In this document: piece by piece, positions 6,911 through 62,792 of the stretch
Layout: the number at the start of each line of letters is the position of its first letter
Position numbering within the stretch: the first letter of the stretch is position 1
IMG/VR virus record: IMGVR_UViG_3300033555_000001
Span: 192,001 to 256,000 of that record
Source: a virus
Lineage: Duplodnaviria > Caudoviricetes
Strand: one strand, 5' to 3'
Length of the DNA: 64,000 nucleotides
The notes under the pieces: generated by a model
Databases searched by the model: none
Told to the model about the DNA's origin: nothing
What the model saw: only the letters and a program-made list of their open reading frames with translations
Translations under genes and position numbers: made by a program

Positions 6911-8791
6911 ATGACTCTGCCTATTACCAAATGTCCTGAAGGAGTTGGATCTATCTACGCCGATGGAACACGCACTGTGGGCGGTGTAGTTCCAGGCGGA
7001 TCAGTCGTTGGTGCCAGCACCGGTAACAGGTACACGCACACAAATCCATACGTGACGCCTGACATCTGCCTTGGCACTTTTAATCTGCTGGACTGTCAAG
7101 ATCTCTACCAGGAGCAATTGGCCGCTGAAAATTTAAATATCAGCGGTGCTCCATTAAACGTCTTTAAACTGCTTGGCGTACACGAGCAGGGAAAATTAAT
7201 CGATTTAGTCGGTGGTGGTCAGGCGCTAAACAGTACGGCACCTGCGTTTGACACCTTAGAATCAAACTGGGTGAGCGACCAGACGGGCATGGGGGTACTG
7301 ACTGCGCCATCATGGATTGGTTATGACTTTGGCACTATTAAGACTTCATTTGGACAAGACACCACTGCACCTGGATCACCAGCCGCCCAGCACATTACCT
7401 CTCTTAGAATAAGTCAGCCATCTAATGGTCGCCGCGCCCTACAAATAAGAGTAGATCGCAGTACTGGTGGCTTTGCGGTGGATCCACTTAAGGTGCAGTA
7501 CACTGGAACCGGTACTGGCTATTTTGCCGATTTTGCGTCAGGTGCCGGTGCCACCCCGGGATCTTTTATGCTCCTGGCTAATACTCCCACAAGCTTTACC
7601 GTTTACTACACCACGGCCACAACGGAGGTGGTAGGCGTGCTTACCGTTGGCGTTAGATTCAATTCACCATACGGTTCTTTTGTTGTACAAGCTGGCGCTG
7701 TGCCCTTTGGTGTTGGCGACATGTTCAGAGTGCCAGTTGAGCTTGAGTGGTACCGAGTTGATGTTGTTAACTTGCCAGACGTTCCAACCCCTGCGTTAAT
7801 TCGTATTAAGCAGTCATCGCCCTCGCGGTACTGGCGTGTTGTGCCAACATCGTTCAGCGGCGTCACGAGCGGTGAGGCGTGGGAAGTTGAGCAATTAGAA
7901 CTCTTTGACTTTCAAGCCACTCGTCTTGACGATGTTCAGGATCAGTTGTTTCTTGAAAACAGGGATCGGGACTATGCTAAACAGTCAGTGCAGTTTAAGG
8001 TAACTTACCAGCCATTTGACTCGCAGTCTGATCTCTCCAAATTCGGCTTTCAAGTATCAGACATTTATTCGTTTACTACTGTATTCAGCACAATGGTGCG
8101 TGCTCTTGGCCGGCCAATTGTAATTGGCGACGTGCTTGAAGTACCAAGTGAAATGCAGTACGATCACAACCTACGGCCAGTCCGAAAATTTCTAACGGTT
8201 ACTGATACTGGCTGGGCCAGTGACGGTTATACCACAAGCTGGCGGCCTATTACCTTTAAATTTCAGGCTGAACAGCTAATCCCAAGCCAAGAAACCAGAG
8301 ATATATTGGGAACGGTAGACACGCAAAAGTACGCCATTGATGACAGCGACTTTTTTGCCGGTATTCAGCAAATTCAAACTGGCCCGCTTACCTCCACCGA
8401 GGCAACAAACGCTGAGGCCGCCCTTGCAACGCCGGAAAAAGGCGAGCAATCACGTGAACTGGCCTCTGGAACAAATAGATTCCAGCGCCCTGGCAGCACA
8501 GATCAAGTAGGCCTCTACGTTGAAGATGGCCTGCCGCCCGGCGGCTTACCGTACACCGAAGCCTTTAAGCTGCCAGATGTAGGTGGTGCAGTTGACGGCC
8601 AGTATTTCAGGCTGAACTACGATCCAAAATTAAATATTGCTTCTCGACTGTACAAATTTAATGGTATTAAAAATACCTGGATGTACGAGGAAACTGACCG
8701 CCGCAGTGAACGCAACAGCATGAAACCATCGCAGCGTGAAGTGTTTAACCAACCTATTGTTGCATCGCTTACCACAAAGAGGATTACATGA
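6911..8791 (+). CDS. Neck/head-closure protein (T4 gp14-like) with inserted domains
   Basis: AENLNISGAPLNVFKLLG...FLENRDRDY...DLSKFG...IGDVLEVP; synteny. Confidence 0.65.
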   Translation: MTLPITKCPEGVGSIYADGTRTVGGVVPGGSVVGASTGNRYTHTNPYVTPDICLGTFNLLDCQDLYQEQLAAENLNISGAPLNVFKLLGVHEQGKLIDLVGGGQALNSTAPAFDTLESNWVSDQTGMGVLTAPSWIGYDFGTIKTSFGQDTTAPGSPAAQHITSLRISQPSNGRRALQIRVDRSTGGFAVDPLKVQYTGTGTGYFADFASGAGATPGSFMLLANTPTSFTVYYTTATTEVVGVLTVGVRFNSPYGSFVVQAGAVPFGVGDMFRVPVELEWYRVDVVNLPDVPTPALIRIKQSSPSRYWRVVPTSFSGVTSGEAWEVEQLELFDFQATRLDDVQDQLFLENRDRDYAKQSVQFKVTYQPFDSQSDLSKFGFQVSDIYSFTTVFSTMVRALGRPIVIGDVLEVPSEMQYDHNLRPVRKFLTVTDTGWASDGYTTSWRPITFKFQAEQLIPSQETRDILGTVDTQKYAIDDSDFFAGIQQIQTGPLTSTEATNAEAALATPEKGEQSRELASGTNRFQRPGSTDQVGLYVEDGLPPGGLPYTEAFKLPDVGGAVDGQYFRLNYDPKLNIASRLYKFNGIKNTWMYEETDRRSERNSMKPSQREVFNQPIVASLTTKRIT

Positions 8792-9222
8792 TCACGTTTA
8801 AGCAGTATATTAATGAGCAGGTAGCTGTTAATGTACCGCGCGTATTGTTTCATGCTGCACCTAGCAAATATAAACAAGATATTTTAAAACAAGGTCTTAA
8901 GCCTAGTAAAGGCGGCACGACGTTTTTAAATAGAACGTATTCAGCACGCGTTCATTTATGTACTAGGATTGAAGCGGCATGGGACTTCACAATGAGCATC
9001 AACGCACGCCGTGAGCAGGGTGAAGATGAAATTGAGTATGACATTTTCCACATAAACGTTGAAGAGCTTCCAGAAAATACTGAATTTTATACAGATCCAG
9101 CGTTTGACCACTTTGGGGTTTGGACTGAAGGTGTAATTCCGGCAACATCAATTGTTAAAGTTACTAAAGTTGATCATGACTGGGAACCGGATGATGATTA
9201 CTACGCTGGAAAAAATGAATAA
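8788..9222 (+). CDS. ADP-ribosyltransferase-fold (Tpt1/KptA-like) protein with capsid-targeting-like N-terminus
   Basis: LFHAA...ILKQGLKPS...RVHLC...IPATSI; N-terminus MITFKQYINE. Confidence 0.5.
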   Translation: MITFKQYINEQVAVNVPRVLFHAAPSKYKQDILKQGLKPSKGGTTFLNRTYSARVHLCTRIEAAWDFTMSINARREQGEDEIEYDIFHINVEELPENTEFYTDPAFDHFGVWTEGVIPATSIVKVTKVDHDWEPDDDYYAGKNE

Positions 9223-9251
9223 GCAATATAACTTGCAACCAAGAGGATTAC

Positions 9252-9695
9252 ATGAGATTAGATGAAATTAAAAAGCAGCTCACCCGCGCAGAAAAAGACG
9301 CCAAGCGAGATGCTGGTAAGAATGAACTGGCCAAGATTGATGCCGCAAACAAAGAAAAAGCGCTTGCAGCCAGGGATGCTAAGTACAACAACGGTGAGGC
9401 TCTTACAATTAAGCTCCCGGTAATTGGATCTAATGGTAAAATTACTACTCAGGAATTTATAATTGATAACTACCTGAAGCAGCGGCACGCCATGCAGGAT
9501 GTGCGGTTAAAGGATTTGAGCAAAGTGCCAGCTCTGCCCGGCGATCGTAAAGAAAAATCTTCATTTATTATTGACATGAATACCAAACACACAGAAGGTT
9601 CAATTGCCGCGTATTTGCACGGGCTGCCAAGTGGCACAAAACGCAAGGCTGGTGCAGAGCCAAACGATTTTAGACGAGAAGCGTACACGGCGTAA
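9252..9695 (+). CDS. Basic hypothetical protein, possible internal head protein
   Basis: MRLDEIKK start; Lys-rich. Confidence 0.5.
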   Translation: MRLDEIKKQLTRAEKDAKRDAGKNELAKIDAANKEKALAARDAKYNNGEALTIKLPVIGSNGKITTQEFIIDNYLKQRHAMQDVRLKDLSKVPALPGDRKEKSSFIIDMNTKHTEGSIAAYLHGLPSGTKRKAGAEPNDFRREAYTA

Positions 9696-9707
9696 CTGGG
9701 ATACATT

Positions 9708-10610
9708 ATGATTAAGCACTATTATTTTGACAACCAGCTTCGCGCGTATTTGCTGCAGTTTATTGCAATTTTCCAGGGGCTGCAAGTCCGTACTGGCCGC
9801 GGTGAGTGCAATGAAGAGCAGTACATCACTGTGCCGTGCGTAGTTGGAAGTAAAGACCGCGTGGTGGCTGCGTTGTTTGCTGGCAATACCCAGAATCGGG
9901 TCTTTAGCTTGCCAACAATGGCAGTACACATGACTGGGCTGTCAGTTGCAAATGATCGGCGAAAAGTTCAGGCACACGTAGATCAACGCGTAATAATGAA
10001 AGCGGGCGGCCAATTTCCAAATGATCTCACGGTTGCAAAGCGCGCCATGCCTATACCGTATGATATGACGGTTGAGCTAGCGCTCTACGCCTCTAATACG
10101 CAGCAACTGCACCAATTACTGGAACAAATTTTAGTCCTGTTTAATCCTGACATTCAGATTCAGAAAAGCGATGGTATGCTGGACTGGACAAAAATTACCA
10201 GTGTAGAGCTGACAGATATTTCAAATGAAGAGAATTATCCAAGCGCCACACAGAACAGAGCTATTGTCTGGACGCTGTCATTTAAGCTGCCAATTTTTCT
10301 AAGCGTGCCAATGGGCATAAAAGACGATGTGGTTCGCCGAGTGATTATTCAAATTGGTTCAATGGACACAATGGTTGTTAACGAAGTAGACGCAAACGGA
10401 GAATTAACGCCGTTTGGTGCGCCACTGGCCAAGATTGATTTTGACACTAGGGAAGTACCTGCGCCAGAAGAGTGCACCTACAATCAAGGAGCAACTCCAG
10501 AAGGTGAGTTAAATGATACTTGGTACAGCGCAGTAACCGCTACAACGCGTCGTTGGGACGGCAGCGCTTGGGTTGTTCTTGAACAGTACTTGCCACCACC
10601 ACGAGCATAA
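9708..10610 (+). CDS. Tail terminator / sheath stabiliser (T4 gp15-like)
   Basis: YYFDNQLRAYLLQFIAIF...VPCVVG...PIPYDMTVEL...LEQILVLFNPD. Confidence 0.75.
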   Translation: MIKHYYFDNQLRAYLLQFIAIFQGLQVRTGRGECNEEQYITVPCVVGSKDRVVAALFAGNTQNRVFSLPTMAVHMTGLSVANDRRKVQAHVDQRVIMKAGGQFPNDLTVAKRAMPIPYDMTVELALYASNTQQLHQLLEQILVLFNPDIQIQKSDGMLDWTKITSVELTDISNEENYPSATQNRAIVWTLSFKLPIFLSVPMGIKDDVVRRVIIQIGSMDTMVVNEVDANGELTPFGAPLAKIDFDTREVPAPEECTYNQGATPEGELNDTWYSAVTATTRRWDGSAWVVLEQYLPPPRA

Positions 10611-10611
10611 T

Positions 10612-10953
10612 ATGATTAGATTACCGCGATTAGAACTTTTAGCAGAACGGTTAAATCCAACTGATGGGCTGTTTAACGGTACAGGCCCGCAGTACAGGGC
10701 GGTGCTTCAAGCGTTTAAAAATGCCAATGGAATACAGCAAACTACTGATAAGTGGGCTGTCGCAGAAGATCCGTGGGCCGACAGCGTTTACCTTATAGTC
10801 CGGTGTTCCGACAAGAATGAGGTTACTGGTTTTGTATTTTTTAGAAAAGACAAGAGCACTAAAGTAGTACCTAACTTGCCGCCAAAAATGAGACGAGTTG
10901 GCATGGATGATTTGCTTCAGCACCTGACTGAAATTGGTGCTGAATTTAAATGA
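10612..10953 (+). CDS. Hypothetical protein
   Basis: ATG just after the gp15-like stop; coupled to the next gene. Confidence 0.5.
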   Translation: MIRLPRLELLAERLNPTDGLFNGTGPQYRAVLQAFKNANGIQQTTDKWAVAEDPWADSVYLIVRCSDKNEVTGFVFFRKDKSTKVVPNLPPKMRRVGMDDLLQHLTEIGAEFK

Positions 10954-12527
10954 TTACTTTCAAAGAATACTTGCTGGAGAAAGCCTTGAATAGGGGCGTG
11001 TACCTTGACGTGATTAAGAAGCTCGCTGGTAAGGCGCTAGTCGGCCTTGAGATTGAAGCACGTGTGCCACCAGAATCACCGTCGTTTAGGCTGACAAAAC
11101 CGGCAGATCGGCGAACTGAAGATGTGCGCGAGTACAGCACTCTTGCAGATTTTTCAGAGAGCTTTTTAATCTCACCGACAGTTTTACGACAAATTACAGG
11201 CGACTTTGCTGGTTGGAGTGCCGCTCAAGAAGACGACTGGGTTGAGGACAATTGGGAAAGCTATATTGACGCTGATGAAGTTGAAGCAAGCGGAGACGCA
11301 AGAGCAGAGAAAACTGCCAGACGTGCCGCACTGGGCGATCATAAATCTGCAGATCACGGCTGGTCAGAATGGTTTACAACATTTAAAAATGTGACTGATT
11401 TTTTAGACATATACGAGTTAGAGCCAAAACATGGCTGGGTAGAAGACAACAAGTTCTTGGTGTACATGGCACTAGATGCTGCAGATACCGCTGATTCAAG
11501 TTGGGAGTCTACAGCTAATCACTTTGGTGCCTTGATGTCAGCTGCCATTGGCGACAAAGTAACTGTTAAAGATGCACCAGGTGCTGATTACTCCTCTTGG
11601 AAAATTGTACCAGATACAAGCATTACTAATGGCGGGCTTGGCACCAACACTGATGGTGATCTTACTGGCGTTGGAATTGAACTTGTGTCTCCGCCACTTC
11701 CCGTTGATACAGCAATTGATCAGCTCACCACAATCTTTAAGCTCATGACTGATCAGGGGCTGGACACAAACACGAGCACTGGTATCCACATTAATATTTC
11801 TGTTCCTGAGCTGGCTAAAAACCTAGATCCGCTGAAACTGGTCTTGTTTATGGGCGACGAGCACGTGCTGAAAGTGTTTGATAGATCAGCTAATCTCTTT
11901 ACGCGCTCTCAGATCTCGAGCATTATCGATGGCATTCAAATCACAGGCACTGTTCCATCTACAGGTGCTGAGTTAATGGATGCAGCACGCCAGTCACTCA
12001 GCCAGGCAAAGTACCGATCAGTTAACCTAGGGCATGTTGAAAAAGGATATTTGGAATTCAGAGCGTCGGGCGGCGTGAACTACCACAAAAAATTAGACTT
12101 AATAGTCGATACAATCGGCCGTTGGTTAACTGTAGTTGATATTGCTACAGATCCTGCTCTACTTAGAAATGAGTACCTTAAAAAAGTTGCAAAGTTATTA
12201 GGCCGTACTAGCGCTGAAAAAGATAAAGCACAGCACTCTGATGTAAGTTTAAAAGAACTTGTGATTAGTACTGCACGCAATAAAGAGGATGGAGAATCCC
12301 TATGGATTGACTTGCAGCAGCGTTCTGTGGTTGGTTTTGACGCATTAGCTAAATTCGCTATTAACGTTGCAAGAAGCTCGATATCAAAGCCAAGTGTTAA
12401 ACAAATTATGGATGTTAAAAATTTATTTAAGACTCTGTCTGTTACTGTTGCGGATATGGTTGAACAAGATCCAGATGTTGAAGTTCTGTTTAACAGATTC
12501 GCAGAGATGTTTAAACTACAAAAGTAG
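10950..12527 (+). CDS. Putative amidoligase (COOH-NH2 ligase type 2) with capsid-targeting-like N-terminus
   Basis: GLEIE...PDTSI...GIELVSPPL...NTSTGIHINIS...KYRSVN...LEFR; N-terminus MITFKEYLLE. Confidence 0.75.
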   Translation: MITFKEYLLEKALNRGVYLDVIKKLAGKALVGLEIEARVPPESPSFRLTKPADRRTEDVREYSTLADFSESFLISPTVLRQITGDFAGWSAAQEDDWVEDNWESYIDADEVEASGDARAEKTARRAALGDHKSADHGWSEWFTTFKNVTDFLDIYELEPKHGWVEDNKFLVYMALDAADTADSSWESTANHFGALMSAAIGDKVTVKDAPGADYSSWKIVPDTSITNGGLGTNTDGDLTGVGIELVSPPLPVDTAIDQLTTIFKLMTDQGLDTNTSTGIHINISVPELAKNLDPLKLVLFMGDEHVLKVFDRSANLFTRSQISSIIDGIQITGTVPSTGAELMDAARQSLSQAKYRSVNLGHVEKGYLEFRASGGVNYHKKLDLIVDTIGRWLTVVDIATDPALLRNEYLKKVAKLLGRTSAEKDKAQHSDVSLKELVISTARNKEDGESLWIDLQQRSVVGFDALAKFAINVARSSISKPSVKQIMDVKNLFKTLSVTVADMVEQDPDVEVLFNRFAEMFKLQK

Positions 12528-12626
12528 GATGAATTTTGGTGGAACATCCTGCCCGGCCCTAAATACACAGACAAACAACAAGCGATCAATTTTGATCCTT
12601 TTAAATCCAGTAGGAGATTAACAAAA

Positions 12627-14471
12627 ATGGCAACACTCGTTTCCCCAGGTGTTTCAGTCTCAGTCACCAACGAGAGCTTCTTTCTTCCAGTAACTGCACC
12701 TACCGTGCCGGTTATCTTTATCGCCACAAAGAGCGGTAAACTGCAACCAAACGGTATTACCCCCGCAGCTGGTACTCTAGAATTTGGCGTCGTTCGTACG
12801 GTTACTTCGGTCCCACAGTCTGTTGAGCTCTTTGGCGTGCCCCATTTCCGCAACGATGTTTCGGGTAATGAGTTCCACGGTGATGCTCGCAATGAATATG
12901 GTCTCTTGGCGCTAAACCAATTTTTAGCAGCTGGTAATCGCGCGTACGTTGTTCGCGCAAATATTGACCTAACCGACGAACCAGAAACATTCATGTCGCT
13001 GGGAACACCAGGCTTGGTTGGCTCATCTGTTTCGTACAACGGCATTGGCGATGGTTCAATTGAATCAATCACAGCGGTAAGTAATGCCGTGAAGCCTCAG
13101 CTGTTTGCAGTACTGTTTACTTCACCAACGTCCTTTTCGGTTACAGGCGCACTGTCTGGCTACATTGGCGCTGGTAACGTAGATGCTGCCTTTACCTCGT
13201 CTAAAATTAACTTTACTGTTATGTCTGGCGCAGTGCCATTTAGCGCTGGCGACACATTCACGTTTAACATGGCCCATATGGCTGTTGCTGCAGGCAGCAA
13301 TACTGGTAATGGTTCTGTTGTTTCACTAACAGTTGATACACTTGCGCTGCCTGAAACTATTACTGTTCTGATGACATCAGCGTCTGCGTTTCAGGTTAAC
13401 AGCACAGTTTCAATGATTGAAAACGGCGTTGTCGGTTCGGCATTTGATAACAACCGCGTTAACTTTACTGTTCAGGCTGGCACCGTTCCATTTGTTGCTG
13501 GTGATGAGTTCACAATCACTGTAAGTTCAGTAACTGTAAGTGCTCCGCTGGGCGCTAACGATGCAGCAAAACGTGTTGCTATTGTTACCGCACTGCAAGC
13601 CGCAATTAACAGCAATGGTGATGTCCGGTCGGAACTCTATGAGTTTAACTTGATTGCTTGCCCAGGTTATCCAGAAGTTGCAGATGAATTACATTCGCTG
13701 AGCGCGTCAACAAAGCAAGAGTCTTTGGTTATTGCTGACACCCCGTGTGATAAATCACCGGATCAAGTTGCACAGTGGGCACTAACATCTGCTCGTGCTG
13801 CAGGCGAAGACATTGCGTATTACTATCCATGGTGCCTGACATCTAACCTTGACGGCCGCGACGTACTTGGCGCACCATCGGGTACTGCTCTTCGCACCAT
13901 AGCGTTCAGTGATCAACAAGGTTATGTATGGTCTGCTCCAGCCGGAGTATCAAATGGTGTGGTGTCTGGCGTATCTCGTCTGGCCTATATAACTGGCACC
14001 AAGGGTACTGCAACCACGCTGATTGAGACTAATCTAAATCAGGGTCAACGCGATAACCTGTACGAATACGATAAAAACATTAACCCAATCTCGTTCTTCC
14101 CGGGCCGTGGATTTATGTTGTTTGGACAGAAAACTTCAGCACCAGCAGCAAGTGCTCTTGACCGCATTAACGTTGCACGACTGGTTATGTACTTGCGTCG
14201 TACACTGCGCAAAGGTGCGTTGCCATTTGTTTTCCAACCAAACGATCAAATCACACGTGATAACTTGAAAGCCGCAGCCGATGGTATCTTGAATGATGTA
14301 TTGACTAAGCGTGGATTATATGATTTTGCCACTCAGTGCGATACTAGCAACAACACTGCGGTAAGAATAGATCGAAACGAGCTGTGGTTAGACGTTGCAA
14401 TCAAGCCAACGAAAACAGCCGAATTTATTTATATCCCGATCCGTGTTGTTAGTACTGGTGCAAATATCTAA
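12627..14471 (+). CDS. Contractile tail sheath protein (gp18-like)
   Basis: MATLVSPGVSVSV...FGQKT...LDRINVARL...FQPNDQITR...KPTKTAEFIYIP. Confidence 0.95.
   Translation: MATLVSPGVSVSVTNESFFLPVTAPTVPVIFIATKSGKLQPNGITPAAGTLEFGVVRTVTSVPQSVELFGVPHFRNDVSGNEFHGDARNEYGLLALNQFLAAGNRAYVVRANIDLTDEPETFMSLGTPGLVGSSVSYNGIGDGSIESITAVSNAVKPQLFAVLFTSPTSFSVTGALSGYIGAGNVDAAFTSSKINFTVMSGAVPFSAGDTFTFNMAHMAVAAGSNTGNGSVVSLTVDTLALPETITVLMTSASAFQVNSTVSMIENGVVGSAFDNNRVNFTVQAGTVPFVAGDEFTITVSSVTVSAPLGANDAAKRVAIVTALQAAINSNGDVRSELYEFNLIACPGYPEVADELHSLSASTKQESLVIADTPCDKSPDQVAQWALTSARAAGEDIAYYYPWCLTSNLDGRDVLGAPSGTALRTIAFSDQQGYVWSAPAGVSNGVVSGVSRLAYITGTKGTATTLIETNLNQGQRDNLYEYDKNINPISFFPGRGFMLFGQKTSAPAASALDRINVARLVMYLRRTLRKGALPFVFQPNDQITRDNLKAAADGILNDVLTKRGLYDFATQCDTSNNTAVRIDRNELWLDVAIKPTKTAEFIYIPIRVVSTGANI
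14409..14471 (+). repeat. 63-bp direct repeat copy 1 (sheath 3' end)
   Basis: Recurs at 16465-16527 with 5 mismatches. Confidence 0.95.
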
Positions 14472-14493
14472 GTGATATAATAACGTTATAAAC

Positions 14494-14520
14494 AAAGGCA
14501 GATAGTATCTGCCTTTTCTT
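14494..14520 (+). terminator. Intrinsic terminator after sheath
   Basis: AAAGGCAGAT-agt-ATCTGCCTTT followed by TCTT. Confidence 0.8.
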
Positions 14521-14561
14521 TGTCATTATTTTTGAATATTACGCTACCTTAAAAAGTCATT

Positions 14562-15989
14562 ATGCCAACATGTAAAATATGCGGATACGCTCATGAGATA
14601 ATGATTCACTTTACTCATATCAGAAAACATGGTATGACGGTTCAGGAATATAAGCTAAAATTTCCCGGAGCCGCGCTGCGTGTGCAGAGCGAAGAATCTA
14701 AATTAAAAATGTCGGCCTCTAAAACAGGAAAGCCTTCTGGACTAAAGGGGAAAATCAGGTCTGAAGAACACTCTAAAAATATATCGGCCGCGCTAAAAGA
14801 AGCTTACTCTTCAGGAAAAATACAACATTGGAACTCAGGTAACACTACTCCACTGTGCGTTAAGGAAAAAATTGCGCAGGGAAATAGAGGCACAATAAAT
14901 GCTGGAAACATAAAGCAAAAGTTAAAAAAGCAGGAGAGAATTAAAGCCGGTGCCATAGCGTTTGGCTGTGAAGTGTTAAGCTGTGATGTAGAAGAACGCA
15001 CCACAGTAAAGTGCCTTGAATGTAAACACGTGTTTAGTTTTACAAACCAAATATTTTATGAAACTCGTTTAGAAAAGACTGGAAAGCTATGCCCGTCTTG
15101 TCAACCGCGAATTACATATTCTTCTGCGGGTGAGCAAGAGCTATTAAATTTCATCAAGTCAGTTTATGCTGGAATAATAATACCCAATGACCGAGGCGCT
15201 CTTGGAGGAAAAGAATTAGACGTTTATTTACCTGAACTCAAGATTGCATTTGAGTACACGGGGTTGTATTGGCACGCTGAAAAACAGAACCCAATAAACA
15301 AGCACTTGTTGTGGAAGAGAGACTTTGCGTTCAATCAAGGAGTCGAACTAATTACTGTGTTTGAAGATGAGTGGCACGATAAACAAGACATTGTTAAGTC
15401 TAGAATTATGAACATGCTAGGTCTTCAGGGTTTTAAATCTGCGGCCAGAAAATTAAAAATAGGTGTTCCATCCGTTAAAGAGAAGAATTTATTTCTGACT
15501 GAGAATCACTTGCAGGGTAGAGATACAAGTTCTGACTGGGCTGCGCTTATGGATGGTGGCGAGATCGTGTGCATTGCCACTTTTAAGAAAACTAGTATAT
15601 CAAAAGGCGGTTCTGGTGATCAGTGGGAATTAAGCAGGTTTGCATCAAAATTAAACACCCAGGTGCAGGGCGGAGCCAGCAGGCTTGTAAGCTGGTTTGT
15701 GCGCAAATACAAAGCAGACCTGGTGTCTTACGCTGATTCTAGATGGAGCACTGGAAAACTTTATAGAACTATGGGATTTGATTTTATCCATCGCTCTTCT
15801 CCAAGCTATTGGTACTTGTTAGATGGTTACAAACGACGCGTGCACCGCTCTGCGTTCATGAAACATCGACTTGTAAAATGTGAAGAGGATAAAGCTTTTA
15901 CGGAATGGGAACTTGCTCAGCAAGCAGGCATGGATCGCATTTGGGATTGCGGCACAACAAAGTGGCTGTTAAAGTACAATCCAAATTAA
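14562..15989 (+). CDS. Free-standing homing endonuclease (Zn module + NUMOD3 + PD-(D/E)xK + GNAT/Mom-like C-terminus; Hef-like)
   Basis: CKICG..HIRKH; SEEHSKNIS; GEQEL...ELDVYLPELKIAFEYTGLYWH; ELSRFAS...GGASRL...SYADSRWSTG.LY..MGF. Confidence 0.75.
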   Translation: MPTCKICGYAHEIMIHFTHIRKHGMTVQEYKLKFPGAALRVQSEESKLKMSASKTGKPSGLKGKIRSEEHSKNISAALKEAYSSGKIQHWNSGNTTPLCVKEKIAQGNRGTINAGNIKQKLKKQERIKAGAIAFGCEVLSCDVEERTTVKCLECKHVFSFTNQIFYETRLEKTGKLCPSCQPRITYSSAGEQELLNFIKSVYAGIIIPNDRGALGGKELDVYLPELKIAFEYTGLYWHAEKQNPINKHLLWKRDFAFNQGVELITVFEDEWHDKQDIVKSRIMNMLGLQGFKSAARKLKIGVPSVKEKNLFLTENHLQGRDTSSDWAALMDGGEIVCIATFKKTSISKGGSGDQWELSRFASKLNTQVQGGASRLVSWFVRKYKADLVSYADSRWSTGKLYRTMGFDFIHRSSPSYWYLLDGYKRRVHRSAFMKHRLVKCEEDKAFTEWELAQQAGMDRIWDCGTTKWLLKYNPN

Positions 15990-16076
15990 GTGTACACTTT
16001 TTACTGAATAAAGTATTATATCCATCCCAGCGCTATAAATAAGTATGTTCAACGTTTACACACCAAAAGGAACACA

Positions 16077-16430
16077 ATGACATACATCGCTGAATTAAAT
16101 CGTACACGGCATCTTGCTGGCTTACAGCCGCTGTCAGAGGCTCAAACGTCAAAAATCTCTTCAGAGCTTAATGAAGCGTTTATCGAGCTAGATTGGGCTC
16201 TTGGTAATACGCCTAAAGAAGTTGAAAAGCTCGTTAAAGCAGCTGCAGAAAAAGAAGACTTAAAAGCAGAAATCATCACAATGGACGGCCCGGGCGGTGG
16301 CAACCCGCTTGTAAGATTCTCAGGTAAAAAAGCTAACATTAAGAAGTTTCTAGTAACATATTGCCATGGCGACGAAACTGAAGCAGATTTCATGATGAAT
16401 GACATTGGTCATAAGCAAGGGACTAGATAG
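16077..16430 (+). CDS. Putative internal head protein (LAG-x-x-PLSE leader)
   Basis: ELNRTRHLAGLQPLSEA; TATAAATA at about 16034 and TGTACA-17-TATTAT at 15991-16019. Confidence 0.55.
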   Translation: MTYIAELNRTRHLAGLQPLSEAQTSKISSELNEAFIELDWALGNTPKEVEKLVKAAAEKEDLKAEIITMDGPGGGNPLVRFSGKKANIKKFLVTYCHGDETEADFMMNDIGHKQGTR

Positions 16431-16464
16431 GTATCTTTTTGCGGACCAACGTACTTATTCACGT

Positions 16465-16527
16465 ACGAAAACATCCAAATTTATTTATATCCCAATCCGC
16501 GTTGTTAGTACTGGCGCAAATATCTAA
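16465..16527 (+). repeat. 63-bp direct repeat copy 2: orphan copy of the last 20 sheath codons
   Basis: Reads TKTSKFIYIPIRVVSTGANI* versus TKTAEFIYIPIRVVSTGANI*; no start codon. Confidence 0.95.
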
Positions 16528-16548
16528 AGCAGCAATTAAGCAATAATG

Positions 16549-16572
16549 AAAGGGACCCGAAGGTCCCTTTTT
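16549..16572. terminator. Bidirectional intrinsic terminator
   Basis: AAAGGGACC-cgaa-GGTCCCTTTTT between convergent genes. Confidence 0.85.
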
Positions 16573-16581
16573 ATTTGAGCT

Positions 16582-16878
16582 TTATTCTCTAGTTTCAACA
16601 ACCGTGCGTTTAACTCTGCTAATCATAACGGTTGCTTTAGTGCCACTTTTGATAGCTGCTCGTGTGAAATGAGATCTAATATCAGAAGCCCAGCCACCCC
16701 ATACTGGGCCGTATTCTACGTCCATTGAGATTGTGTTCTGGTTATTTGGTCCTGGTATAATCGTTTTCTTACGGACAGTGATTGTCCCAGGTAAAAAGCT
16801 TTCAATTTGCTTGAGAAGCTCGAGTTTGCCGCCCTGAATTTGTACTTCGGCTGTGAGGAGACCCTTGGTCTTTTGCAT
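16582..16878 (-). CDS. Hypothetical protein
   Basis: AGGAG RBS; only plausible ORF in the gap. Confidence 0.55.
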   Translation of the reverse strand: MQKTKGLLTAEVQIQGGKLELLKQIESFLPGTITVRKKTIIPGPNNQNTISMDVEYGPVWGGWASDIRSHFTRAAIKSGTKATVMISRVKRTVVETRE

Positions 16879-16981
16879 GTTAATGCTCCTGATTAGAATG
16901 CTGCAGCAGGTCGCCGCAGTAAAGGAATTCTAAGCTAGTATGATTTTTCAGTAATATTAGGAATCAGGTTAGGCGACAAAG

Positions 16982-17776
16982 TTAGGAAAGTATTGTCTTT
17001 AATCTGACTAACTCCTGCTTTTGTTTGTGCTTCCACAAGAGCTCCCAAAACTCATGAATTACAATTCCCTGCTCTGCAGCGTATGCAAGTTTATCAGCTT
17101 CGCGTGACCCATCGCCTGGGTGCCAGTATTCACCGTGGTATTCAAAACCAATTTTTAAATCTGGAAGATAGATGTCAATTTCTTTTGGCTTTATCGCTTG
17201 GCGATCATTCACAATAATCCGACCAGTATATAGTGCTTTCACGGCCTCATACAGTTCACCTTGCCCCCGAGATACATGGCAGGACGGACACCAAATACCA
17301 GTCACGCGAGTAAACGGCCGGCTAAAAACTTCACCGCATATATGGTGCCACTTGTATTCGTTTTGCATGCCAGGAATAATCTCATCAACTGGTGTAATGC
17401 CCTTTACTGCAAGTTTATCAAGCTTAGCCTGCGCACGATTGTTGAAGTGCGCGCTTTTCATGTCATAAGAAGTCTGCGCTTTCCATTCAGGATCTGCCCA
17501 GAGCTTTTCGTGACGTATAGATTTTTCTGGAGCTAATAATGCTTGAGCACACTTCATTGAACACACTTTTCTGTAACCCACTGTGTAATTTATCCAGTTT
17601 GTTAGCTTTCCGCAGTAACATGTTGGCCGTATGTTTAAGACGTTCCAGGCCTTCTCGGAAATGCTATTACCATGATATTCATTCAACCATATTAGGCGCT
17701 CAGCGTTGCGCCATTTACCAGCACAATATTTGCCATCTTGGAACAAGGCAACGATGAGTTCAGTTTGTTTTGTCAT
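16982..17776 (-). CDS. Free-standing homing endonuclease (Zn modules + PD-(D/E)xK)
   Basis: CYCG..CSMKC; CPSC..SRGQGEL...KEIDIYLPDLKIGFEYHGEYWH; TAAATA on minus strand at 17781-17786. Confidence 0.75.
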   Translation of the reverse strand: MTKQTELIVALFQDGKYCAGKWRNAERLIWLNEYHGNSISEKAWNVLNIRPTCYCGKLTNWINYTVGYRKVCSMKCAQALLAPEKSIRHEKLWADPEWKAQTSYDMKSAHFNNRAQAKLDKLAVKGITPVDEIIPGMQNEYKWHHICGEVFSRPFTRVTGIWCPSCHVSRGQGELYEAVKALYTGRIIVNDRQAIKPKEIDIYLPDLKIGFEYHGEYWHPGDGSREADKLAYAAEQGIVIHEFWELLWKHKQKQELVRLKTILS

Positions 17777-17881
17777 TCGCTATTTAGAGTAATTTTTGAT
17801 TGAAACCTTGTAATCTGTAGATAAACCCATAAATACACTGAAGCTGCTCAAGCTGTACAAACCTTAATAGGAGTTATCAAA

Positions 17882-18475
17882 TTGGCAACATTATCGAATT
17901 TCGGAATTCCCGGCGCAGGTTCGGGAATCCTTCACCCAAAAATGCGTAATAAATGGAGGGTGACATTTCAGGATATTAGTCGCCTAGTATCTGGCGCAAA
18001 CAGCCGTAACCTTACAATGCAGGCAGTTACTGTTAGCCGCCCACAAATTGAATTTGAAGAAGTTGCAATTCACCGCTACAATTCAACTGCTTATATTGCC
18101 GGCAAGCACACATGGTCACCAATGAGTTTGACGGTAGACGATGATATTACTGGTCTAGCATCAAAAGTTGTTAAGGGCCAACTTGAAACACAGCAGCGCC
18201 TTGTTGGTGTTGACTTGGACGGCCGCTGGTTGAATACTGCAGCTACTGGTTCAGACTATAAATTTGGTGTTAAGCTTGAGCAATTAGACGGCGATGAGGG
18301 TGTTGTTGAATCGTGGATCCTTGAAGGCGTAATGATTCAGGCTGCCGATTTTGGTGAAGGCGATTATTCTTCTTCAGAGGCTATGACAATTCAGCTAACG
18401 CTGCGTTTTGATCACGCGCGCTGTATTGACGCTGGTGAGGGTTATGGAAGCGCGTTAGGCGGAAACGTTTCTTAG
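17882..18475 (+). CDS. Tail tube protein (gp19-like)
   Basis: KWRVTF...VSRPQIEFEEVAIHRYNS..YIAGKHTWSPMSLTVDDD...TIQLTLRFDHA; follows sheath. Confidence 0.85.
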   Translation: MATLSNFGIPGAGSGILHPKMRNKWRVTFQDISRLVSGANSRNLTMQAVTVSRPQIEFEEVAIHRYNSTAYIAGKHTWSPMSLTVDDDITGLASKVVKGQLETQQRLVGVDLDGRWLNTAATGSDYKFGVKLEQLDGDEGVVESWILEGVMIQAADFGEGDYSSSEAMTIQLTLRFDHARCIDAGEGYGSALGGNVS

Positions 18476-18487
18476 TAATTTTTTAAA

Positions 18488-18516
18488 TTTAAAGGGCCTG
18501 CTTTTTGCAGGCTTTT
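18488..18516 (+). terminator. Tube terminator copy 1 (shorter stem)
   Basis: GCCTGC-ttttt-GCAGGC-TTTT; 25-bp match to 18830-18854. Confidence 0.7.
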
Positions 18517-18524
18517 ATTGGATC

Positions 18525-18812
18525 TTGGAGAATAAATTGAATCTTGTTGAAACATTAAACAGAGCACGCGAGCTTGCCGGAATGGAGCCGCTGTCAGAAG
18601 CTGCAGCCAAAAAAATATCTAGCCCGTCATATAAAATTACATGGGAGGGTTATCCAAATAATCCTAAGCCAGAAACTCATGGCATTGAGTATTTTACAGA
18701 TGACCTGGCATTTGACAATGATGATCGTAATAAAATTAAAGATCTCGGAGTTGGCGACAAACATGTTATGGCTGGTCCTATGGACTCCGTCACGGTTGTT
18801 CGGATAAAGTAA
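18525..18812 (+). CDS. Putative internal head protein (LAG-x-x-PLSE leader)
   Basis: TLNRARELAGMEPLSEA; GGAG RBS, TTG start. Confidence 0.55.
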   Translation: MENKLNLVETLNRARELAGMEPLSEAAAKKISSPSYKITWEGYPNNPKPETHGIEYFTDDLAFDNDDRNKIKDLGVGDKHVMAGPMDSVTVVRIK

Positions 18813-18829
18813 TCTAGTTAAAAGTAGTT

Positions 18830-18860
18830 TTTAAAGGGCCTGTTTCTTGCAGGCCCTTTT
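18830..18860 (+). terminator. Tube terminator copy 2 (full stem)
   Basis: AAAGGGCCTG-tttcttg-CAGGCCCTTT-T. Confidence 0.8.
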
Positions 18861-18933
18861 AGTATGCGCAGTAGATTAATACACACGCTTGAGTATAGCT
18901 AAATATCTTATTACTTTATAGCCTGGAAATATA

Positions 18934-19245
18934 ATGAAACTTAGCGAAATTATTGGCGAGTCAGCGGTTAGTTACACGGTTCAGCCGACAAAACGATTTT
19001 GGCTGGTATTTGCCGAGCCCACATCCTTTAAGCAGTTAACACAGGATAAAAAATTCCTGGCGCACGCCGGCCCGCACACTACTTTTTTAGACGTTTCAGA
19101 TGTTGAAGATGTTAAACTGTCTCCTGGCGAAAATAAGTGGAATGCTATGAAGCGGCTTTATAGTAATGACGAAGATGAAATCACTTGCTCCAACTCTGGT
19201 GTTCCAACAGAATGGGTGTGTCTTGCAATCAACGTGTCCATCTAA
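18934..19245 (+). CDS. Hypothetical late protein with capsid-targeting-like N-terminus
   Basis: MKLSEIIGE; TAAATA upstream. Confidence 0.55.
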   Translation: MKLSEIIGESAVSYTVQPTKRFWLVFAEPTSFKQLTQDKKFLAHAGPHTTFLDVSDVEDVKLSPGENKWNAMKRLYSNDEDEITCSNSGVPTEWVCLAINVSI

Positions 19246-19247
19246 AA

Positions 19248-20537
19248 ATGCCCGACATCTCAAAATTAGTTAAAGTTGCCGGTATTGATGCCGAGAGAAC
19301 GGCCACCGAGCTGTTCGGCATTGCCGTGGAGGACTTTGCGGCCAAGCCACTGAATGCACTATTAAAGGGTGCATTAGGTGGGCCTGAGAATCCGCCGGTG
19401 AACCGCAACGATGGATCGTGGTATGCAACCTCGTACGCCGCAAGCCAGGCTAACTCACTGTTTCGCCCAAAGCTAAAGTTCTTATTTCGCGTTGAATTCT
19501 TGTTTAAGCCTGAAATTTTAGAGCAATACCAGGCACAAACAGCCGCGTGGAAAAATAACTTTACGTTCCTAATTAAGTCAGTCGATCGCCCTAAGGTTGA
19601 CTTTGAATACGAAGAAATCAATCAGTACAATTTTAGAACAAAAGTTCTAAAGATGATCAAGCACCGAGAGCTCACCATGACCTTCTCGGACGACGTTGGA
19701 AATACAGTGTATGAATTTTTTAGATTCATGCTCATGGTGCACTCTCCAATTACCCGACGCTCAGCTGGTTCCTCGCACAACATTGCGGACTATACTTCCT
19801 CTTCCAGCACCGGAAATGGTATGTTATTCTCTGGAAATCTGGGCAACTTAGAAGACAGCGCCAGCCGTGGCGTGCTTAACACTGACGTTGGTAATGCGAT
19901 TCAGGCAATTAAAATTACTCAGATGTTTGTACAGCCGGGCTCGGCTCAGCATGATCTTGATACTGGCGCAAAAGAAGTCTCGTTTATCTTTATTAACCCG
20001 CGTATGGTTTCTTTTGATCTTGATGATTTGAACCATGAGACCAGTGAAGCAAACTTGTTTACTATGCAGTTTGATTACGACTCAATGGTGCTCACTGACG
20101 CCAGATTGCTGCAGGCCCTGCCACCTGAAAAATCAATGCCACCAGTAGGCACTGCTCCTGGAGAAGCCGCACCGACTGGTCGAGCTCCTGGAGATCAAAA
20201 TCCAGAGGGTAATAATAATCCTTATACCAAGCTGCTGTCGGGAGTTGCTGCCAGAGCAGCACAACGCATCACTAGCGAAACAATTGGCCGCCAACTGCGC
20301 CGCGTGCCGGGGTTAGGATCAGTATCAGATGTACTTGGCGGGCTTGTGCAGGGGATTACGCGTGACCGTGTAGCCGGGCTTGGGTCAGCGCTTAATCAGT
20401 CTTTTGCCAGACCAAGTCGCGATGTTGTTTCTGATAACTCAACCGCCGGCCGTGACAGCAGCACCTTTGTTACCTCACGTGGCGGATTTGGCACTGATCA
20501 ACCAAGCGTAGACTCAATAGAAGAATCGGGAACATAA
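19248..20537 (+). CDS. Tail-tube-fold baseplate/tube-initiator protein (gp48/gp54-like)
   Basis: PKLKFLFRVEF...IKSVDRPKVDFEYEEINQYNFR...LTMTFSDD...MQFDYD; ATG 19248 preferred over 19185. Confidence 0.6.
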   Translation: MPDISKLVKVAGIDAERTATELFGIAVEDFAAKPLNALLKGALGGPENPPVNRNDGSWYATSYAASQANSLFRPKLKFLFRVEFLFKPEILEQYQAQTAAWKNNFTFLIKSVDRPKVDFEYEEINQYNFRTKVLKMIKHRELTMTFSDDVGNTVYEFFRFMLMVHSPITRRSAGSSHNIADYTSSSSTGNGMLFSGNLGNLEDSASRGVLNTDVGNAIQAIKITQMFVQPGSAQHDLDTGAKEVSFIFINPRMVSFDLDDLNHETSEANLFTMQFDYDSMVLTDARLLQALPPEKSMPPVGTAPGEAAPTGRAPGDQNPEGNNNPYTKLLSGVAARAAQRITSETIGRQLRRVPGLGSVSDVLGGLVQGITRDRVAGLGSALNQSFARPSRDVVSDNSTAGRDSSTFVTSRGGFGTDQPSVDSIEESGT

Positions 20538-20983
20538 TGGCCGGAACACGCAAAACATTTCAGGGAAGATTTATGCCTAAGAACCCAGGTAAATACTTGG
20601 GCAACGTTGGGAAAATAATTTTTCGATCAGGTTGGGAACTGCGAATGTTTCAGTGGTTTGATGCTACCCCATCTGTTTTACAGTGGGCAAGCGAAGAGTT
20701 TTCAGTTCCATATCTGTCACCACTTGATAACAAAGTGCACCAGTACTATCCGGATGCGTTTGTCATCTATAAAGATAAGTTTGGAAATTTGCAAAAAGAA
20801 ATTATTGAAATTAAACCGTACAAAGAAACAGTGCTTGGCCCAAAATCAACAGAGCGTGACAAGTTAGCGTGGGTAGTTAATCAGGCTAAATGGAAAGCTG
20901 CCGCACTGTTTGCTGAGCAACAGGGCTCTAAGTTCCGAGTAGTAACAGAAAAGTCTATGTTCGCCAATGGAAAAACAAAATGA
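20537..20983 (+). CDS. Head completion nuclease (T4 gp4-like, TnsA-N fold)
   Basis: GRFMPKNPGKYLG...RSGWE...WASEE...YYPD...IEIKP...NQAKW. Confidence 0.85.
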   Translation: MAGTRKTFQGRFMPKNPGKYLGNVGKIIFRSGWELRMFQWFDATPSVLQWASEEFSVPYLSPLDNKVHQYYPDAFVIYKDKFGNLQKEIIEIKPYKETVLGPKSTERDKLAWVVNQAKWKAAALFAEQQGSKFRVVTEKSMFANGKTK

Positions 20984-21462
20984 TTCTTTTGCGAGAACTG
21001 TTGGGCAGCCCTCTCGAATATACTTGGGTACAGCAACACGATGCTTACTGGAGAGCAGAATTTTTTGTTAATGGAGTTAGTTACTCAGTTATTGCAAGTG
21101 AAGAAAATAATTTTAAAGATGAAGGCGGAAATGATGCCGTGTATTGGGAAATATCGTTTGCGCAAACTGAAAAATCATTGACTGGAACTAAAACTAATTC
21201 TGGTGGAGAGTTACAAGTTTTTTCAACCGTTCAAGCAGCGGTGTTTGATTTCTTAGATCAGAAAAAACCCGATTGGATTGGCATAAGCTCAACTAAAAAA
21301 GAAGAGAACAGATTTAATTTATACTTACGAATGATCAACCGGTTAACGAGTAAACTTAACGGTATGGGTTATTCTTTGCATTCGTGCCCAACTTATGGAG
21401 ACACGTCTATCCAGCAATATCTGGATCAATATGAAACTTATTGCATGAGAAAAACAAAATGA
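20980..21462 (+). CDS. Hypothetical protein, paralogue of 23890; capsid-targeting-like N-terminus
   Basis: MILLRELL; WEISF...SGGELQVFSTV...R.NLY. Confidence 0.6.
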   Translation: MILLRELLGSPLEYTWVQQHDAYWRAEFFVNGVSYSVIASEENNFKDEGGNDAVYWEISFAQTEKSLTGTKTNSGGELQVFSTVQAAVFDFLDQKKPDWIGISSTKKEENRFNLYLRMINRLTSKLNGMGYSLHSCPTYGDTSIQQYLDQYETYCMRKTK

Positions 21463-21905: not shown

Positions 21906-21928
21906 TTATTAGACAAGGGAGATACACA

Positions 21929-22342: not shown

Positions 22343-22348
22343 AATAAC

Positions 22349-22390
22349 ATGCGAAAGATCTCTGTAGACGCTGAAGTCAAGAAGATTTAA
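22349..22390 (+). repeat. 42-bp copy of the 3' end of ORF 21459 (other copy 21864-21905)
   Basis: atgcgaaagatctctgtagacgctgaagtcaagaagatttaa versus atgcgaatgatttctgtagatgctgaagtcaagaagatctaa, 4 mismatches. Confidence 0.95.
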
Positions 22391-22397
22391 TTTACTA

Positions 22398-22433
22398 AAC
22401 AGATGTACATTAATTTAACAGATGTACATTAAT
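22398..22433. repeat. Tandem 17-bp repeat, period 19
   Basis: aacagatgtacattaat at 22398-22414 and 22417-22433. Confidence 0.9.
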
Positions 22434-61473: not shown

Positions 61474-61475
61474 CC

Positions 61476-61976
61476 GTGAATCTGTTCAAGCTCTATGCTA
61501 ATCCTGAAGAGCTTGACAGTTATGAAGAGGCGCATGAGCTTGTCCCACTTTTAATGTGGGAAAAATACTGGCACAATCCAGCCGAACTAAAAAAGAGAGA
61601 ACACGTAATCACAAAAGATGCAAATGTGTCTTATATGTACGCGCGGTTCATTATAGGCGAAAGATTTGAAGCTGCTGAAGCCATGATTGCAACGTGCGCG
61701 GCCTCGGCTTATGAATATGCTTTCTTTGTTTTAGAGTCAAGATTTGAAGCAGGTGAAGCTGCAATTGCTACCTCAACTAGCTATGCTTATGGATATGCAA
61801 AATACGTTTTAAAAGCAAGATTTGAAGCCGGTGAAGCCGCAATTGCAAAGCATTGCCCAACCTCTTATTGTTATGCAACTAAGATTATTAAAACTCGTTT
61901 CCCCGCTGGTGAAGTCGTAATCGCTAAAGATCAGCGGTTGTCGCAAAAGTATAATGATTTTATTGCACAGTTATAA
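61476..61976 (+). CDS. 26-aa tandem-repeat helical protein
   Basis: Four RF(E/P)AxE..IA...Y.YA..V(L/I) units. Confidence 0.75.
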   Translation: MNLFKLYANPEELDSYEEAHELVPLLMWEKYWHNPAELKKREHVITKDANVSYMYARFIIGERFEAAEAMIATCAASAYEYAFFVLESRFEAGEAAIATSTSYAYGYAKYVLKARFEAGEAAIAKHCPTSYCYATKIIKTRFPAGEVVIAKDQRLSQKYNDFIAQL

Positions 61977-61977
61977 T

Positions 61978-62466
61978 ATGAAAGATAGACAAATGAAAAA
62001 CAAATCGCCGTGGATCTCTACGGCAGACAGGCTGCCCGAAATTAATACACCCGTGCTCTTTGTGCACTCTGGCACAATATACGATGGTGTAGTCTGGTGG
62101 TATAAAGATAAGAATATAGTGAGTTATGTTTTTGCTGTGGGCACAGCTCAAGGTGGTGACCAACTCTTTCAAGCAGCAGAGGTCCAGCACTGGATGCCAC
62201 GCCCAGTAATTCCAGTTCAAACTGAACGCTTGCTGCACAGCGAAATGATTGTCAGTACACCTCATTTATCAAAAATACTCAAGCTGTTTAAGAAAAAGAA
62301 TCATCAGTCTGCAGGGTACTCTTTTGAGTTCGAAGACTGTGGCACAATTAAAGAGGCCTGCAAAGCAAGGCCGGACTTAGTGCCTGATGGATATGAAGAT
62401 CAGCATGAACTAAACGTTAGCGGTGGTGTGCTCCAGGTGTACCGTGACTGTCTGATTAAACCCTAA
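61978..62466 (+). CDS. DUF551-like domain protein
   Basis: WISTADRLPE..PVL...VQHWMPRP. Confidence 0.65.
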   Translation: MKDRQMKNKSPWISTADRLPEINTPVLFVHSGTIYDGVVWWYKDKNIVSYVFAVGTAQGGDQLFQAAEVQHWMPRPVIPVQTERLLHSEMIVSTPHLSKILKLFKKKNHQSAGYSFEFEDCGTIKEACKARPDLVPDGYEDQHELNVSGGVLQVYRDCLIKP

Positions 62467-62618
62467 TAGCGCCCATTAATCAAGCCTAATAAATTTAACC
62501 GGGCCACCCGAGCCCTCCCGCATCTATATAACCCGCTGGTCCCAAGAACAAAACGATTTAGAACTAAAGAATCAATCCCGGCTATTTGTAAATAAGAGGT
62601 GAACAAAAAGAGCCAATC

Positions 62619-62792
62619 ATGAAGCTGTACGATTTTTCAGTCCATGCAAAAAGACGAGACGCTAACCAGTCTGCGGAGCGTGTCTGCGCACTGCGCACTA
62701 AGTTAAACGAACCTGGAGCGGTAATTGAACTTAAAGCACGTGTGCAGTGCTGGCTTGTGCTGCACGAAGAAATACTTAAGATGGCCTCTTAA
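62619..62792 (+). CDS. 57-aa late hypothetical protein
   Basis: Hand-translated MKLYDFSVHAKRRDANQSAERVC...; TAAATA upstream. Confidence 0.45.
   Translation: MKLYDFSVHAKRRDANQSAERVCALRTKLNEPGAVIELKARVQCWLVLHEEILKMAS

Follow-up and report, generated by a model that had tools for sequence, protein, structure and literature searches.

Why should genes for otherwise unrelated proteins, lying in one stretch of a viral genome, begin with near-identical short leaders? The question is raised by bases 192,001-256,000 of the 310,728-bp IMG/VR record of an uncultured phage (CheckV completeness 87%), a 64-kb stretch that we call the window. Coordinates are those of the window unless marked as genome, in which case they refer to the whole record, and genes are named by their starts. 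The original prediction took the leaders for T4-like propeptides that are cut after (I/L)-x-E and joined to unrelated cargo. All 17 of the N-termini that it quoted are present where it had placed them. Its core is borne out by the identity of the tag with that of T4, by a gp21-family protease in the same genome, by the leader-cargo junction in orthologues, by the late-operon context and by the virion protein gel of the relative RsoM2USA. The leaders are, in our judgement, probably T4-type capsid-targeting propeptides. The mechanism itself is known from T4; this is a case of it in a distant jumbo lineage, with enzyme cargo and interchangeable leaders. From the alignments, these leaders appear to take three interchangeable forms: a 10-residue form, M-x-T-F-K-E-F-L-x-E; a 5-9-residue form, M-K-L-x-E(-L-L-x-E); and a 14-residue form, M-K-L-L-R-E-Y-I-R-E-L-L-S-E.

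The long form, x-T-F-K-(E/Q)-(F/Y)-(L/I)-x-E, is found in six window genes (8788, 10950, 23219, 23890, 24320 and 30668) and in two genome genes outside the window. A strict version, [FYW][KQR][EQD][FYW][LIVM]xE, was matched seven times in the six frames of the 310,728 bp, each time at a protein start: in window genes 8788, 10950, 23219, 23890 and 30668, and in genome 36499 (MISFKQFLTE) and 72216 (MLTFRQFLQE). Composition alone would yield 0.22 matches in the proteome, and column shuffles that preserve N-terminal composition 0.009. Genes were called with a simple caller based on codon usage and ribosome-binding sites, which returned 452 genes. When these calls were clustered blind by their initial 14 residues, paralogues having been removed, the long-tag set formed the largest cluster, beside MKLSE(I/L)(I/L)xE, MIL(R/K)(E/Q)L..(L/I)TE and MQLLQELL; signal peptides were also recovered and served as a positive control. 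A position-specific scoring matrix (PSSM) was trained on the leaders of 23219 orthologues, with the window's own protein left out. The starts of 8788, 36499, 23219, 10950 and 72216 outscored every internal 8-mer (n=71,100) with this matrix, and the next ranks were taken by 32119, 23890, genome 187415(-) and 30668. Leader codons differ at synonymous sites and the DNA upstream of the leader genes is unrelated. The likeness is thus kept at the protein level and does not reflect a recent DNA duplication, which argues for selection on the peptide. A duplicated 5' cassette or a common regulatory element at the DNA level was considered and is ruled out by the differing codons and the unrelated upstream DNA.

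The boundary between leader and cargo was located in the family of 23219 (23219..23893, + strand). This gene encodes a 224-aa protein with the start MRFKEFLAE↓MAAP (arrows mark predicted junctions) and a predicted ADP-ribosyltransferase (ART)-type fold. Homologues numbered 194 at E <= 0.001; the best 120 were analysed, and the junction was readable in 98 of these. Throughout the 98 orthologues a variable leader ends exactly at a conserved M-A-x-P, about 12 residues before an invariant YYHG. The leader is of one of three kinds, namely MITFKQFLxE, MKLSELFE or MKLAELLE, and MKLLREYIRELLSE. Position P1 is Glu in 96/98 and P3 is Leu or Ile in 84/98, while P2 is free; as aligned, the junction residues are those of the published gp21 cut rule, (L/I)-x-E. 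Six more orthologues (P0005, P0024, P0066, P0071, P0073 and P0078) were called from M-A-A-P itself, and an internal start there could provide a leaderless cytoplasmic form beside the packaged form in this family. The mature part of 23219 and its orthologues always begins with Met. In the AlphaFold2 (AF2) model of 23219, the predicted local distance difference test score (pLDDT) is 92 overall; residues 1-10 (pLDDT 59) lie outside the fold, and the remainder reaches 92-98. The top Foldseek matches of the model are all ART-fold proteins (Tpt1/KptA, DarT, PltA, pertussis S1 and Arr), although with weak scores (best E 7e-3, probabilities reaching 0.99, template-modelling score 0.2-0.37). H24, G25, Y65, Y76 and E114 are invariant in the family.

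Leader forms are exchanged at one and the same junction in the orthologues of three cargo families, those of 23219, 8788 and 23890. The gene at 8788..9222 (+; PSSM score 19.9) joins MITFKQYINE↓Q to a 134-aa cargo, and in its family MKTLQLFE-type starts (here MKLTQLFE) replace the MITFKxFLxE of other orthologues. The gene at 23890..24327 (+), MITFKEFLGE↓LLNRKVEY, carries a cargo matching phrog_6387/16075, and its orthologues read MKLNE↓ILNRKV, MLLKE↓ILNKKV or MITFKEFLNE at the matching junction. This exchange upholds the grouping of MKLSE, MKISE, MILLRE and MQLLQE starts with the long tag that had been proposed at the outset.

The cargoes themselves have little in common. A blastp comparison among the tagged proteins showed a single related pair, 20980 and 23890 (E 4e-10). 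The largest cargo, at 10950..12527 (+), is a 525-aa protein with the leader MITFKEYLLE↓K and an Amidoligase_2 domain (Pfam PF12224, E 1.6e-9; 38.4 bits against a cut-off of 22) that covers only residues 211-300. Its orthologues are 36-39% identical overall, yet 8-9 of the 10 leader residues are kept (MITFKEFLFE, MITFKEYLTE). The gene at 24320..24583 (+), MIKTVPSFKEFLILE↓D, encodes an 87-aa DUF5824 protein of pI 10 (PF19141, E 1.9e-13). Two ART-fold proteins had been predicted in the set. For 23219 the fold search supports the assignment, whereas for the cargo of 8788 the sole link to that family is an hhalign alignment at 83.5% probability, of which the leader itself forms part. The AF2 model of the 8788 product is poor (pLDDT 62) and unfit for a fold search; a possible reading of the profile alignment is an ART-like fold distantly related to 23219. 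We regard 8788, 10950, 23219, 23890 and 24320 as five firm members in the window. The genes directly upstream of two leader genes, window 10612-10953 before 10950 and genome 8688-9281 before genome 9278, share starts of the type MI(N/R)LPRL(Q/E)(I/L)LAE.

A protease of the type that such leaders call for is encoded at genome 178427-179041(-). It matches Peptidase_S77 (gp21 family, PF03420, E 9e-24) over genome 178565-178972 and phrog_207 (E 3e-52) and is 31% identical to T4 gp21; its H72 and S125 align with His85 and Ser140, the catalytic residues of the T4 enzyme (PMC12991175). In the T4-like head module the portal gene precedes that of the protease, after which come the genes for two small proteins (180 aa and 55 aa), for an acidic scaffold-like protein and, beyond it, for the gp23-like capsid protein. 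The acidic protein contains twelve (L/I)-x-E sites. The protease (MILLTEYL) and the product of the gene after it (MILRELIALTE↓A) both start with short-form leaders. In the capsid protein (genome 175316-176587(-)), Y-M-M-E↓TASA aligns with the T4 gp23 cleavage site F-L-T-E↓AEIGG, and judging by this alignment the protease of this phage may accept Met at P3. A modelled complex of the protease with the 23219 product scored 0.00, which is evidence neither way.

The tag resembles the T4 capsid-targeting sequence (CTS) position by position. In T4 (NC_000866), ipII and ipIII start with MKTYQEFIAE↓A, ipI with MKTFKEF, gp24 with MAKINELLRE↓S, Alt with MELITELFDE and gp22 with MLKEQLIAE. Mutagenesis of the T4 CTS has assigned targeting mainly to residues 4 and 7 and processing to residues 8 and 10 (Black review, PMC9026906). 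In the long tags of the window, positions 4 and 7 are aromatic, position 8 is L or I and position 10 is E, so that all four mapped positions are kept. The short-form starts find their counterparts in Alt and gp24, where MELITELFDE and MAKINELLRE↓S are short gp21-cleaved propeptides. When the leader PSSM was applied to 55 kb of T4, ipII, ipIII, gp2, Inh, gp24 and gp22 ranked high. Among these, the head proteins gp2 (MAIFQIINE↓S) and Inh (MIDKDYIAE↓L) score about as high as ipII and ipIII (T4 loci L004 and L009). The system shares with the T4 internal proteins a 10-residue tag, cargo that is otherwise unrelated, a gp21-family protease and variable slots among conserved genes. It differs from them in its host genome, which is that of a 310-kb jumbo phage with a sheath nearest to RsoM2USA, XacN1 and CM1 and not to Straboviridae, and in its cargo, which includes large enzymes (the 525-aa amidoligase, the ART-fold protein) and not just small basic proteins. 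Tagged genes are also many more than in T4, their leaders take three interchangeable forms, and they stand within tail, neck and terminase operons.

The short leaders have to be examined separately. The pattern ^M.[LI]L?.E[LIFMY] occurs at 18 protein starts, which take in nearly all remaining cases of the original prediction. At 18934..19245 (+), MKLSE↓IIGE↓S precedes a 103-aa cargo and clusters with genome 9278, 84993 and 187415(-); at 32119..32712 (+), MKISE↓LLE↓Q precedes a 197-aa cargo (PSSM score 12.7, cluster membership), for which no relatives were found in the IMG/VR search. Both have a TAAATA box upstream. The gene at 20980..21462 (+), MILLRE↓LLGSPLEY, lies between the gp4-like head-completion and small-terminase-like genes; like its paralogue 23890 it matches phrog_6387/16075, and its junction was aligned with orthologues. 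Two genes were assigned by clustering: 21929..22342 (+), in which MQLLQE↓LLG...RLTE↓A is followed by a 137-aa cargo and the start resembles the 14-residue MKLLREYIRELLSE leaders of 23219 orthologues, and 22501..22929 (+), which uses a GTG start codon and in which MQLLQE↓LMSLKLKIAE↓P is followed by a basic 142-aa cargo of pI 9.9. We count 18934, 32119, 20980, 21929 and 22501 as about five further, probable members.

The setting of the leader genes was assessed from their promoters. NTAAATA, which resembles T4 late TATAAATA, is enriched 15-17-fold upstream of genes. TATAAT, often extended to TGTTATAAT, is also enriched there, the two promoter-like motifs together spanning 10-17-fold. Genes were classed by whichever of the two motifs was met first on moving upstream through the operon. 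Long and short leaders together divide 15:2 between the NTAAATA type (late) and the TATAAT type (early), whereas the remaining genes divide 185:188 (Fisher p = 0.0013). The two early-type exceptions, 8788 and 10950, sit between neck and sheath genes. Equal frequency of the motif among early genes had been named in advance as an outcome that would speak against packaging; in these crude motif classes the leaders are predominantly late.

The alternative that survives best holds that the short M-K-L-x-E-L starts are ordinary helices made alike by N-terminal composition bias, and that only the long tag is a true signal. Column shuffles do produce such starts, 3.0 ± 1.6 on average, and about 3 of the 18 could be chance. 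Three short-form genes stand in early-type units. The leader PSSM also ranks T4 DNA ligase (MILKILNE↓I) and UvsY high, and a short leader alone is therefore neither diagnostic nor proof. The observed 18 nevertheless exceed the maximum of 9 reached in 2000 shuffles, and the short-form genes alone divide 14:3 between late and early types (p = 0.007). The interchange of short and long forms at one junction in three ortholog families, and the short form on the protease and its neighbour, also speak against composition bias. We consider this explanation unlikely. The genome-wide comparison of N-terminal motifs with shuffled controls, proposed as a check on the original prediction, thus gave an excess for both forms (long tag, 7 against 0.009; short form, 18 against 3.0).

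A second alternative accepts the cleavage and denies the journey: the leaders would be protease-removable pro-sequences only, which hold potentially harmful enzymes (ART-like, amidoligase, nuclease) inactive in the producing cell up to the onset of prohead protease activity, with neither capsid loading nor injection. The gp21 cut motif at the junction suits it, and several of the cargoes are indeed enzymes. Many others are small and lack an enzyme signature, however; the T4 precedent links the same residues to targeting, and T4 gp21 acts inside proheads (PMC9026906). The relative RsoM2USA also bears on this point. Its ORF89, with the tag MKTFKQFLSE and a calculated mass of 28.56 kDa, is among ten proteins assigned to virion gel bands, an assignment based on predicted mass and on LC-MS/MS (liquid chromatography-tandem mass spectrometry) of the most abundant bands (PMC8504454). 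We hold the pro-sequence explanation to be improbable, somewhat more so than composition bias. A third proposal, that a modifying enzyme of the radical-SAM type recognises the leader, as in ribosomally synthesised and post-translationally modified peptides, is highly improbable: no Radical_SAM domain was found in this genome (87% complete), although the domain was detected in all 14 control genomes, and the tag, which agrees with the T4 CTS at each position, has the protease motif at its end.

Returning to capsid targeting, the tag was followed into other phages. IMG/VR contains at least 120 matches to the DNA pattern for M-x-T-F-K-E-F-(L/F)-x-E, whereas the reversed control pattern matched once. 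Among the matches listed, the complete open reading frames (ORFs), 110 in number, all measure at least 55 aa; they fall into 42 unrelated cargo clusters and include one homologue each of window 10950 and 24320. An S77 protease was present in 7 of the 23 longer tagged contigs, including both of those rated complete; the other contigs are 11-63% fragments. Among cultured relatives, RsoM2USA, the nearest, has six N-terminal long tags, XacN1 one and PA5oct none, and the protease occurs in all three. The RsoM2USA ORFs 254, 255, 256 and 258 show leader-like starts between the gp4-like ORF260 and the terminase ORF253, a slot that corresponds to window 20980-24583; the tagged cargoes of RsoM2USA gave no blastp match in this phage. 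The text of the XacN1 paper makes no mention of the tagged gene of that phage, ORF117, of which the terminal repeat holds a duplicate. PA5oct was considered as a proteomic test case and set aside: its sole pattern match lies inside an exonuclease gene, and its mass-spectrometry list includes metabolic enzymes.

Several observations weigh against capsid targeting as the explanation, beside the scores of T4 DNA ligase and UvsY and the chance share of short starts given above. PA5oct has the gp21-type protease family and no long tag. The promoter classes are a crude motif call of our own. In 24320 the motif (..PSFKEFLILE) begins eight to nine residues in and not at the extreme N-terminus. The original prediction had called this gene from 24317; the motif is there, but the protein reads MMIKTVPSFKEFLILE, and no nearer start codon is available. 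An IMG/VR homologue (L066) has MKTFKEFLKE at the extreme N-terminus. Finally, 30668 (30668..31795, +) encodes a polynucleotide-kinase-like (P-loop kinase) protein with HD and AAA_33 domains, the HD match being weak. Its start, MSTFQDFLVE, matches the long motif as had been noticed, but in four orthologues the E..E pattern is missing from an N-terminal helix of equal length, and the gene lies outside the structural blocks. Its membership is doubtful, and the alignment suggests that the apparent tag may be a native helix.

If the leaders are capsid-targeting propeptides, the amphipathic tag at their N-terminus, which in the long form has aromatic residues at positions 4 and 7, would bring the tagged proteins to the scaffolding core as the prohead assembles late in infection. 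The gp21-family protease would then cut behind the terminal (L/I)-x-E of the tag, and the freed protein would remain in the head with the DNA and enter the next host cell with it. We infer core binding and cleavage in this phage from these comparisons, and packaging and injection before phage transcription would follow by analogy with T4. The putative ART-fold protein 23219 has a parallel in T4 Alt, an ART enzyme that is carried in the head and injected. The two differ in size (224 aa against 682 aa), and the fold matches of 23219 are to Tpt1/KptA, DarT and toxin-type ARTs, with invariant His, Tyr and Glu; no sequence similarity was detected between the 23219 product and T4 Alt.

Two further phage systems invite comparison. 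For the jumbo phages phiKZ and 201phi2-1, proteomics reportedly gave (S/A/G)-x-E as the cleavage site. The propeptides of these phages and of SPN3US are long and varied, and we know of no description of a short N-terminal tag that they have in common; in the present genome the tag is T4-like and its site (L/I)-x-E. What is shared with phiKZ, 201phi2-1 and SPN3US is a jumbo phage with many head-loaded proteins cut after Glu, ejection and inner-body proteins there being processed by a diverged gp21 homologue (PMC5694885, PMC10052503). In phage P1, DarB likewise has an N-terminal signal, which there suffices for capsid loading and delivery; unlike the leaders described here, the P1 signal measures 10-30 residues, with no consensus common to the Dar proteins (PMC9024508).

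The T4-type address label would thus be in use well beyond the T-even phages, in a jumbo lineage of the RsoM2USA/XacN1 kind, and its bearers would include enzymes beside small proteins. Its cargo appears to turn over fast, the nearest relative having the same tag on entirely different cargo. We know of no such injected proteins in T4 other than IPI-III and Alt. Of these, IPI-III block GmrSD-type restriction (PMC12373910). Injected proteins act before phage gene expression and are thus a phage's first answer to host defences. It is possible, if rather doubtful, that the tag grammar is general, with leaders interchangeable across phages with gp21-type proteases, and that an injected proteome including counter-defence enzymes can be read from sequence alone. 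Were this true, the injected kit of uncultured T4-like and jumbo phages would exceed small restriction inhibitors, with the Acb1 nuclease active against cyclic-oligonucleotide-based anti-phage signalling systems (CBASS), ART-fold enzymes and the amidoligase as candidates. In practice the tag offers an inexpensive means of picking out, from metagenome sequence, candidates for injected anti-defence proteins, and it suggests a portable label for loading foreign proteins into jumbo-phage heads. The ortholog junctions offer a purely comparative read-out of the gp21-type cut-site rule.

The Acb1-family gene at 44419..44859 (+) begins with the short-form MKLYE↓LKE↓IRGTYVAL. It matches PF23474 from residue 10 onwards (E 1.6e-23; 83.4 bits against a cut-off of 27), and the earlier calls of Acb1 here and of amidoligase at 10950 both stand above the Pfam cut-offs. 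An N-terminal extension of 8-11 residues is optional in the Acb1 family, being absent from 22/97 homologues; 46/97, about half, start with M-x-L-x-x-[LIFM] and so bear an optional leader of this kind, and 3/97 carry the long FK(Q/E)FLxE tag. In T4, Acb1 (57B; locus L004 13953-14411(-)) starts with MMEFKDF and adjoins ipI (MKTFKEF). Acb1 may be a head-loaded protein in some phages.

Three further genes had been proposed as carriers. The basic 147-aa protein of 9252..9695 (+; MRLDE↓IKK) was matched by the short-form pattern alone and has no comparative support. The 261-aa protein of 47414..48199 (-; MKIQE↓LLG) has weak protein-kinase matches (phrog_15752, E 5e-5), a PSSM p of about 0.012 and its own TAAATA box. 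For both, the short form was confirmed and the remaining evidence is weak; we list them with 44419 and 30668 as possible members. The 57-aa product of 62619..62792 (+), which starts with MKLYDF, is dropped from the set: it has no (L/I)-x-E in its first 30 residues and falls in no N-terminal cluster.

Two genes credited with the same tag carry a different one. The first, 16077..16430 (+), follows the sheath and endonuclease genes and begins MTYIAE↓LNRTRHLAGLQPLSE↓A; the second follows the tube gene and begins MNLVE↓TLNRARELAGMEPLSE↓A. The latter had been called from a TTG at 18525, and the ATG at 18537 is the likelier start (18537..18812, +). Their common 29-residue module is 59% identical, and its pattern, ..LNRxRxLAG(L/M)xPLSE↓A, occurs in no other gene. 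It ends in a protease-type site, L-S-E↓A, and on that ground may represent a second type of propeptide.

Most tagged genes lie in a T4-like late virion block at 4887..27712 (+), delimited by PHROG matches and sheath relatives. PHROG-assigned genes in it encode a neck protein, a sheath stabiliser (9708), the sheath (12627), a homing-endonuclease-like protein (14682), the tube (17882), a tube-like protein (19248), a gp4-like head-completion protein (20537), a small-terminase-like protein (21459) and the large terminase (26177). The nearest relative of the sheath is that of Ralstonia phage RsoM2USA (55% identity), followed in order by Stenotrophomonas phages CM1 and RAS14, Xanthomonas phages XacN1 and Xoo-sp13, and PA5oct-like phages; megablast of window 8000-26000 gave no GenBank phage match. 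Two large homing/HNH-endonuclease-like genes stand directly after major structural genes: 14682-15989 (phrog_3339) after the sheath, and genome 173472-175136(-) (phrog_559) after the major capsid gene. At the place that corresponds to the former, behind its sheath gene, PA5oct likewise carries a homing endonuclease. Elsewhere in the window, 58938-59958 holds three tandem paralogues of 113-114 aa that share the start M(M)NPEIKAxWVAALRSxDYKQ.

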